The translations under genes were made by a program, and so were the position numbers. A stretch of DNA of 4,448 nucleotides from a virus (Duplodnaviria > Heunggongvirae > Uroviricota > Caudoviricetes), in IMG/VR virus record IMGVR_UViG_2713896899_000010; one strand, 5' to 3'. The notes under the pieces are model-generated. The model was not told where the DNA came from. It saw only the letters and a list, made by a program, of their open reading frames with translations, and did no database searches. Each line of letters begins with the position of its first letter. Position 1 is the stretch's first letter. Shown one piece after another: positions 1,165-1,474 of the stretch.

Positions 1165-1197
1165 ATAGTAAGAAATGTAACAAACAAGTTACAGCAA
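1165..1197 (-). promoter_or_regulatory. PRE-like CII-activated promoter: TTGC-N6-TTGT (complement of 1184-1197) flanking a -35 position, candidate -10 TACTAT (complement of 1165-1170)
   Basis: Lambda PRE has TTGC-N6-TTGC at the same offset (+10 to +23 from the cII ATG) on the bottom strand. Here one repeat reads TTGT. Confidence 0.4.
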
Positions 1198-1474
1198 ACT
1201 ATCACAGCGCGACGTTGATCGCGCAGAAACAGATTTACTCATCAACCTGTCAACGCTTACACAGCGCGGTCTGGCAAAGATGATTGGCTGTCATGAATCG
1301 AAGATAAGCAGAACGGACTGGAGATTTATTGCTTCGGTCTTGTGTGCTTTCGGAATGGCATCAGACATCAGTCCGATTAGCAGAGCTTTTAAGTATGCGC
1401 TTGATGGAATCACCAATAAAAAACGCCCGGTGTGCAAGACCGAGCGTTCTGATCAAATACAAATGGAATTTTAA
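1175..1474 (+). pseudogene. cII: cII homologue with an in-frame TAA at codon 2; downstream 97 codons are open and contain the CII HTH and a lambda-like C-terminus
   Basis: GGAAATA...ATG at 1175 aligns with the lambda cII RBS and start. The frame 1181-1471 reads ...DLLINLSTLTQRGLAKMIGCHESKISRTDW...ITNKKRPVCKTERSDQIQMEF (lambda: ...ALLNKIAMLGTEKTAEAVGVDKSQISRWKRDW...LTNKKRPAATERSEQIQMEF). There is no ATG/GTG/TTG in frame between 1181 and the ATG at 1280. Confidence 0.55.

Follow-up and report, generated by a model that had tools for sequence, protein, structure and literature searches.

A lambdoid phage cII gene with an ochre codon at codon 2, probably a recent null allele

[quoted passage not shown] Loss-of-function point mutations in this activator gene are known from the classical clear-plaque cII-null mutants of lambda, which include nonsense alleles, cII being a forward-mutation target. 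Clear-plaque mutants of lambdoid phages have also been sequenced and deposited, among them phage L cI-40, whose CII-equivalent activator has a missense exchange (Gln27Arg) (PMC8022706). A formally similar arrangement, with a stop codon right behind the AUG, was described by Meydan et al. for the bacterial start-stop minimal ORFs detected with Ribo-RET (10.1101/520783).

The DNA described here is a stretch of 4,448 nucleotides (the window) from the IMG/VR virus record IMGVR_UViG_2713896899_000010. By its gene content, the window belongs to a lambdoid phage or prophage, of which it is the immunity and replication, or early-right, region, and its features are compiled in Table 1. As in lambda, cII is located between cro, nutR and tR1 on one side and the replication genes on the other, and the overlaps known from lambda are shared as well, with PRE tetrads inside codons 3–8, an oop terminator located in the 3′ end and a C-terminus that resembles the FtsH tag. 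Apart from that, the window is a mosaic that combines lambda-type cI and cro with a non-lambda nutR, while an HTH_36 initiator and a Toprim primase/helicase replace O and P. Like the classical cII-null mutants of lambda, it appears to carry a loss-of-function point mutation in the gene of the CII activator. Phage L cI-40 and mEp043 c-1 are comparable in that their deposited genomes are wild-type except for one mutation that inactivates a lysogeny regulator; the mutation in the window is a nonsense mutation and not a missense mutation as in cI-40. The primase/helicase module of the window is present in mEp043 c-1 at 98.4 % identity.

Table 1. Features of the 4,448-nucleotide window with their coordinates, strand and the evidence used for their assignment.
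Feature	Coordinates	Strand	Evidence
cI repressor gene, 237 aa, lambda-immunity type, intact	54–767	−	Pfam HTH_3 and Peptidase_S24
PR-like promoter TTGACT-17 nt-GATAAT, OR region between cI and cro	815–843	+	consensus scan, 10/12 matches
cro gene, 66 aa, intact	868–1068	+	Pfam Cro, 117.5 bits
nutR-like site: boxA-like CGCTCTTTA (1076–1084), boxB-like hairpin ACCGC-CGACAAC-GCGGT (1094–1110)	1076–1110	+	sequence, predicted hairpin
7-bp hairpin with GAAA loop at the tR1 position between nutR and cII	1123–1140	+	hairpin prediction
GGAAATA upstream of the cII start	1161–1167	+	identical sequence and 7-nt spacing in lambda cII
PRE-like leftward promoter: −10 TACTAT (1165–1170), tetrads TTGC-N6-TTGT (1184–1197)	1165–1197	−	homology to lambda PRE, HK97 and 933W
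cII gene, 933W/HK97 type, nonsense at codon 2	1175–1474	+	translation, Pfam PF05269, annotated starts of relatives
Ochre codon TAA, T1178 in place of G (GAA, Glu2)	1178–1180	+	alignment to relatives
Sole remaining in-frame ATG ORF, 64 aa from Met36	1280–1474	+	ORF listing; no evident Shine-Dalgarno sequence
oop-like intrinsic terminator, antisense to the cII 3′ end	1420–1450	−	terminator scan: stem of 12 bp with a T run behind it
Small ORF of 47 aa without a family match; relatives have it as a called gene	1497–1640	+	position between cII and replication gene
Replication initiator-like HTH_36 protein, 258 aa, intact	1637–2413	+	ORF and profile match
Toprim primase/DnaB-like helicase fusion, 626 aa, intact	2521–4401	+	ORF and profile match

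Inspection of the plus strand shows ATG at 1175–1177 followed in the same frame by TAA, behind which 97 sense codons (1181–1471) stay open until a second TAA at 1472–1474. The initial annotation had recognized both the lambda-like context of this ATG and the ochre codon directly after it, and the two readings hold in sequence and translation, with GGAAATA ending 7 nt before ATG 1175 as it does before lambda cII. The cII regions of 933W, HK97, SH2026Stx1, Stx2a_F403, Lambda_2G7a and Stx2_EH0505 were aligned for comparison, five of the six being annotated. All five annotated starts, including those of 933W and HK97, align exactly to ATG 1175, and relatives using another valid start, which would have spoken for a different gene beginning, were not seen among them. 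The gene opens with ATG GAA CAA ACA AGT in five of the six relatives and with ATG ACA CAA in HK97. By this alignment the lesion is G1178T, which converts GAA (Glu2) into TAA; the ochre codon is a one-base event and not a statistical pattern. At its 3′ end, the gene in the window closes with the double stop TAATAA (1472–1477), while TAACAA, with C at 1475, is found in Stx2a_F403 and in the fetched loci L006, L007, L009 and L014–L016.

The 97 codons behind the ochre codon match the Pfam family Phage_CII (PF05269) with 113.9 bits against a cutoff of 21.3 bits (E=4e-33, profile positions 6–90 of 91), and phmmer matches their product to the lambda CII structures 1xwr, 1zpq and 8igr in the PDB, in agreement with the initial view that they encode CII with a lambda-like C-terminus. 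Close similarity to lambda CII is confined to the last ~20 residues of the protein, a weaker alignment beginning at about residue 9; the C-terminus TNKKRP..TERS(D/E)QIQMEF is common to both, and the tail TNKKRPVCKTERSDQIQMEF is homologous to the FtsH degradation tag of lambda, TNKKRPAATERSEQIQMEF. Family, subtype and gene position are shared with 933W CII (AAD25432.1) and HK97 gp52 (AAF31130.1). The cII genes of 933W, HK97 and their relatives are 91–98 % identical to that of the window on the DNA level and have the start codon and the N-terminus MEQTSYSKLSQRD in common, but these genes are intact with 98–99 aa, whereas the copy in the window stops at codon 2. On the PR transcript, the gene occupies the place typical of the family, directly behind cro and nutR/tR1 and ahead of the replication genes, and this gene order is common to lambda, 933W, HK97 and the loci L007–L026. 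On the sequence level, the C-terminal tag and the antisense oop-type terminator are likewise present, as is a PRE-type promoter with TTGC-N6-TTG(C/T) tetrads opposite the first cII codons. The one family trait missing is the uninterrupted ORF of about 97–99 codons from the homologous start, which is broken by the TAA at codon 2. Judged from these traits, the locus descends from a cII gene, yet as a null allele or pseudogene it is no functional member of the family.

The minus-strand tetrads TTGCTGTAACTTGT at 1184–1197 align with lambda TTGCGTTTGTTTGC at an equal distance from the start codon, and the PRE-like −10 and the tetrads together keep the lambda register relative to the cII start codon, although the assignment of hexamer and tetrads in this putative PRE is made by homology. 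In lambda coordinates, position 1178 corresponds to about −20 of PRE and falls into the spacer, outside the tetrads and the −10, where the base varies among relatives (C, C, T). On the minus strand (1182–1174), G1178T changes TGTTCCATT to TGTTACATT, which fits an extended −10 of the form TGnTAnnnT within the PRE spacer. By adding the −11 A of this element, the mutation could have created a CII-independent leftward promoter for cI, resembling cin, the constitutive establishment promoter of lambda genetics, from which a cII-null phage would still lysogenize. We consider this barely credible and rejected a new minus-strand promoter, as the sigma-70 scan did not report one at the minus-strand site of G1178T and the extended −10 pattern arises easily by chance: with 7.5 occurrences expected, TGNTANNNT is counted 11 times in the window, so that the match carries no evidential weight. 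G1178T furthermore completes a perfect 6-bp inverted repeat, TGTAAC-N6-GTTACA (1176–1193), over the start and stop codons of cII. The predicted RNA hairpin over the cII start has −1.0 kcal/mol in the wild type and −5.1 kcal/mol with T1178.

The occurrence of the ochre allele was assessed in several collections. A pattern scan of IMG/VR with N at position 1178 returned at least 120 loci. Among the matches listed, G is found at 1178 in 140 of 140 related copies from the fetched loci that match the 23 flanking bases, and complete cII ORFs of 98–99 aa in 129 of 129; HK97, whose codon 2 is ACA, lies outside this flanking pattern and is not within the 140. The check proposed in the initial annotation, whether relatives have TAA at codon 2, thus came out at none of the 140 matches listed, T1178 being private to the window. 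The exact 80-mer around 1178 is absent from all 830 matching E. coli complete-genome records, the best matches being 98.8 % identical, which equals one mismatch, and exact patterns with T1178 gave no match in genome_contigs (scanned twice), viral_contigs and metagenome_contigs. For the window as a whole, the best full-length match reaches 97 %. The remaining 97 codons of cII encode a sequence that recurs unchanged in a protein found 11 times among the fetched loci. The Glu2 ochre allele is thus found in no collection searched.

Close relatives, retrieved by exact-protein look-ups of cI and of the 258-aa replication protein, allow the event to be placed in time. Over positions 1063–4448, the window differs from L017–L020 and L025 at only 3 of 3386 bases, namely 1122, 1134 and 1178. 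The variants at 1122 and 1134 are also present in other lineages (L014, L015, L006) and are consistent with mosaic joints around nutR, which leaves 1178 as the sole private base of this segment. Since the other two differences recur in further lineages, the event should be recent, and on this comparison T1178 goes back to a single, very recent event, the module being undamaged elsewhere. The mosaic itself can be followed in blocks of identity: positions 58–1120 are identical to the lambda-immunity prophage locus L007 and positions 1069–1174 to L014, L015 and L006, while the relatives L017–L025, three bases away over 1063–4448, carry a different immunity region, so that recombination joints flank nutR. 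At the other end of the immunity region, positions 1–53 downstream of cI are unlike the rexA-side sequence of all lambda-immunity loci fetched. They show a 95 % match to a “hypothetical protein” that adjoins LexA-family repressors in some E. coli genomes, and a minus-strand ATG at 23–21 (MVIRISG...) opens a gene running beyond the edge of the window.

The elements surrounding cII are those of a lambdoid early region. The cI protein presumably departs from that of lambda at about a dozen residues. Public assemblies contain the exact protein in 1563 blocks, and this very widespread allele was seen joined to many different replication modules, among them ones of the O/DnaB, IstB and Toprim types. 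The PR-like promoter corresponds in position to lambda OR/PR. We infer that the boxA/boxB-like site is nutR from the position of nutR in lambda and from the boxB-like hairpin at 1094–1110, which we take to resemble the P22-type boxB. Where the window has the hairpin at the tR1 position, 933W, HK97 and Stx2a_F403 have the unrelated palindrome TATGCGTTTCCACGCATA (at about 375–395 in L001 and L002), which suggests a conserved structural role, as tR1 or as a processing site, with differing sequence. The lambda homologue of the oop-like terminator is located at 698–730 of L147. Downstream of cII, the small ORF is 100 % identical to L017–L026, the exact 258-aa replication protein is found in 28 blocks of assemblies, and the primase/helicase DNA is 100 % identical to L019–L026. 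Within the HTH_36 gene, about 2.9 tandem units of 22–24 bp (GGTGGGGCAGGAGCTGACC...) at 1928–1991 encode GGAGAD repeats and are probably origin iterons as in lambda O. A search for structured RNAs gave no Rfam match in the window at E≤1.

Taking these observations together, we consider it likely that a recent G1178T null mutation of cII has abolished CII-dependent establishment of lysogeny while leaving maintenance and lytic functions intact. An error in sequencing, base calling or assembly, with a true genome that carries G1178 and an intact 99-aa cII, would produce the same picture: T1178 recurs in none of the relatives and collections searched, no other base in 3.4 kb is private, and restoring G returns the protein seen repeatedly among the fetched loci. 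Uniqueness is, however, equally expected of a fresh mutation. Consensus errors usually arise as indels, in homopolymers or at the methylation motifs GATC and CCWGG, whereas T1178 is a clean substitution, a transversion, with no indel, homopolymer, GATC (Dam) or CCWGG (Dcm) motif. A random error would moreover knock out cII only about 0.4–0.5 % of the time. Knockouts of cII by nonsense or start loss account for 0.37–0.48 % of all possible single substitutions in the window, and a selected clear or lytic variant is therefore mildly favored over random noise, an argument that is post hoc, the cII lesion itself being the reason why the window was flagged. Overall, we regard an error as unlikely, if by no means negligible. 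The initial annotation had additionally offered a decaying prophage. Taken as a generally defective element with cII as one of several dead genes, this describes a setting rather than a separate cause. The cII lesion itself would fit such decay, but the option lacks support within the window, where all five other genes are intact and only 1178 is private. The cI and 258-aa replication proteins are identical to proteins on record, the DNA of the small ORF, the replication gene and the primase/helicase gene is 100 % identical to relatives and that of cro to L007, and indels, IS elements and frameshifts are absent, which makes general decay quite improbable.

It is very unlikely that a functional or regulatory product persists, be it by readthrough or suppression of the ochre codon, by reinitiation at ATG 1280, by a +1 shift out of the ORF at 1159 or through a ribosome trap at the start-stop site. 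The idea draws on the unchanged ribosome-binding region of cII and on the 64-aa ORF, whose match to Phage_CII persists over the C-terminal two thirds of the family. Among the stop codons, UAA terminates most efficiently in E. coli. According to the initial annotation, the DNA as written cannot yield full-length CII, ATG 1280 being the only in-frame ATG; the ORF listing bears this out and extends it, as no in-frame ATG, GTG or TTG occurs between 1181 and 1279, and the upstream in-frame codons are TAG and TAA. ATG 1280 itself lies 100 nt downstream without a Shine-Dalgarno sequence, and the 64-aa product has no exact match as a called gene in public assemblies. Its Met36 aligns with Val33 of lambda CII, which we take to be the end of the first HTH helix in the lambda structure, and by this homology a product from 1280 would lack helix 1 and the first HTH helix, in line with the loss of HTH helix 2 stated initially. 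The out-of-frame ATG 1159 opens a 19-aa peptide, MEIVRNVTNKLQQTITARR, that ends at 1218, again as first described; a frameshift or fusion from this ORF was rejected, for it has no Shine-Dalgarno sequence, is also present in wild-type relatives and has no known +1 frameshift signal at its end. Ribosome-binding start-stop sites do exist in E. coli, where they slightly modulate the expression of host genes (10.1101/520783), and the window likewise has an AUG-stop behind a functional ribosome-binding region. The minimal ORFs of E. coli, however, lie within genes in another reading frame, and their retention has been proposed, whereas the stop in the window replaces codon 2 of the main ORF and destroys the gene. 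With a stop at codon 2 in none of the 140 relatives among the matches listed, it is not a selected element, and a conserved start-stop element was discarded as an explanation; the resemblance is superficial.

For the favored reading, a recent null mutation of cII, the course of events can be sketched from lambda genetics. Ribosomes would initiate where they normally do on cII, the start site being unchanged, encounter UAA as the second codon and terminate after fMet, so that CII would not be made. Without it, PRE (for cI), PI (for int) and PaQ (against Q) should stay inactive after infection, as expected from lambda genetics and from the promoter activation described in PMC5869508, and establishment of lysogeny should be as poor as in the lambda cII-null mutants. 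By analogy to lambda and P22-type phages, the phage would lysogenize very poorly and form clear plaques, while prophage maintenance by cI expressed from PRM would persist, as would immunity, replication and lytic growth. Low-level readthrough of UAA or an ochre-suppressor host could yield some CII. The next ORF has a putative Shine-Dalgarno sequence of its own (GAGG, 1486–1489), and N-type antitermination should limit Rho-dependent polarity. The allele may have arisen during lytic propagation of a stock, where clear variants would be favored or picked; alternatively, it may stem from a resident prophage, where the repressed cII could be lost almost without cost.

The finding falls within classical lambda genetics and raises no new biological question, yet it bears on how the element is annotated and used. 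For the cII locus, the appropriate annotation is that of a pseudogene or null allele and not that of a 64-aa “hypothetical protein”. [quoted passage not shown] For the phage itself, a clear-plaque and poorly lysogenizing behavior is to be expected, which would matter if it were used as a “lytic” phage or counted as an inducible prophage.
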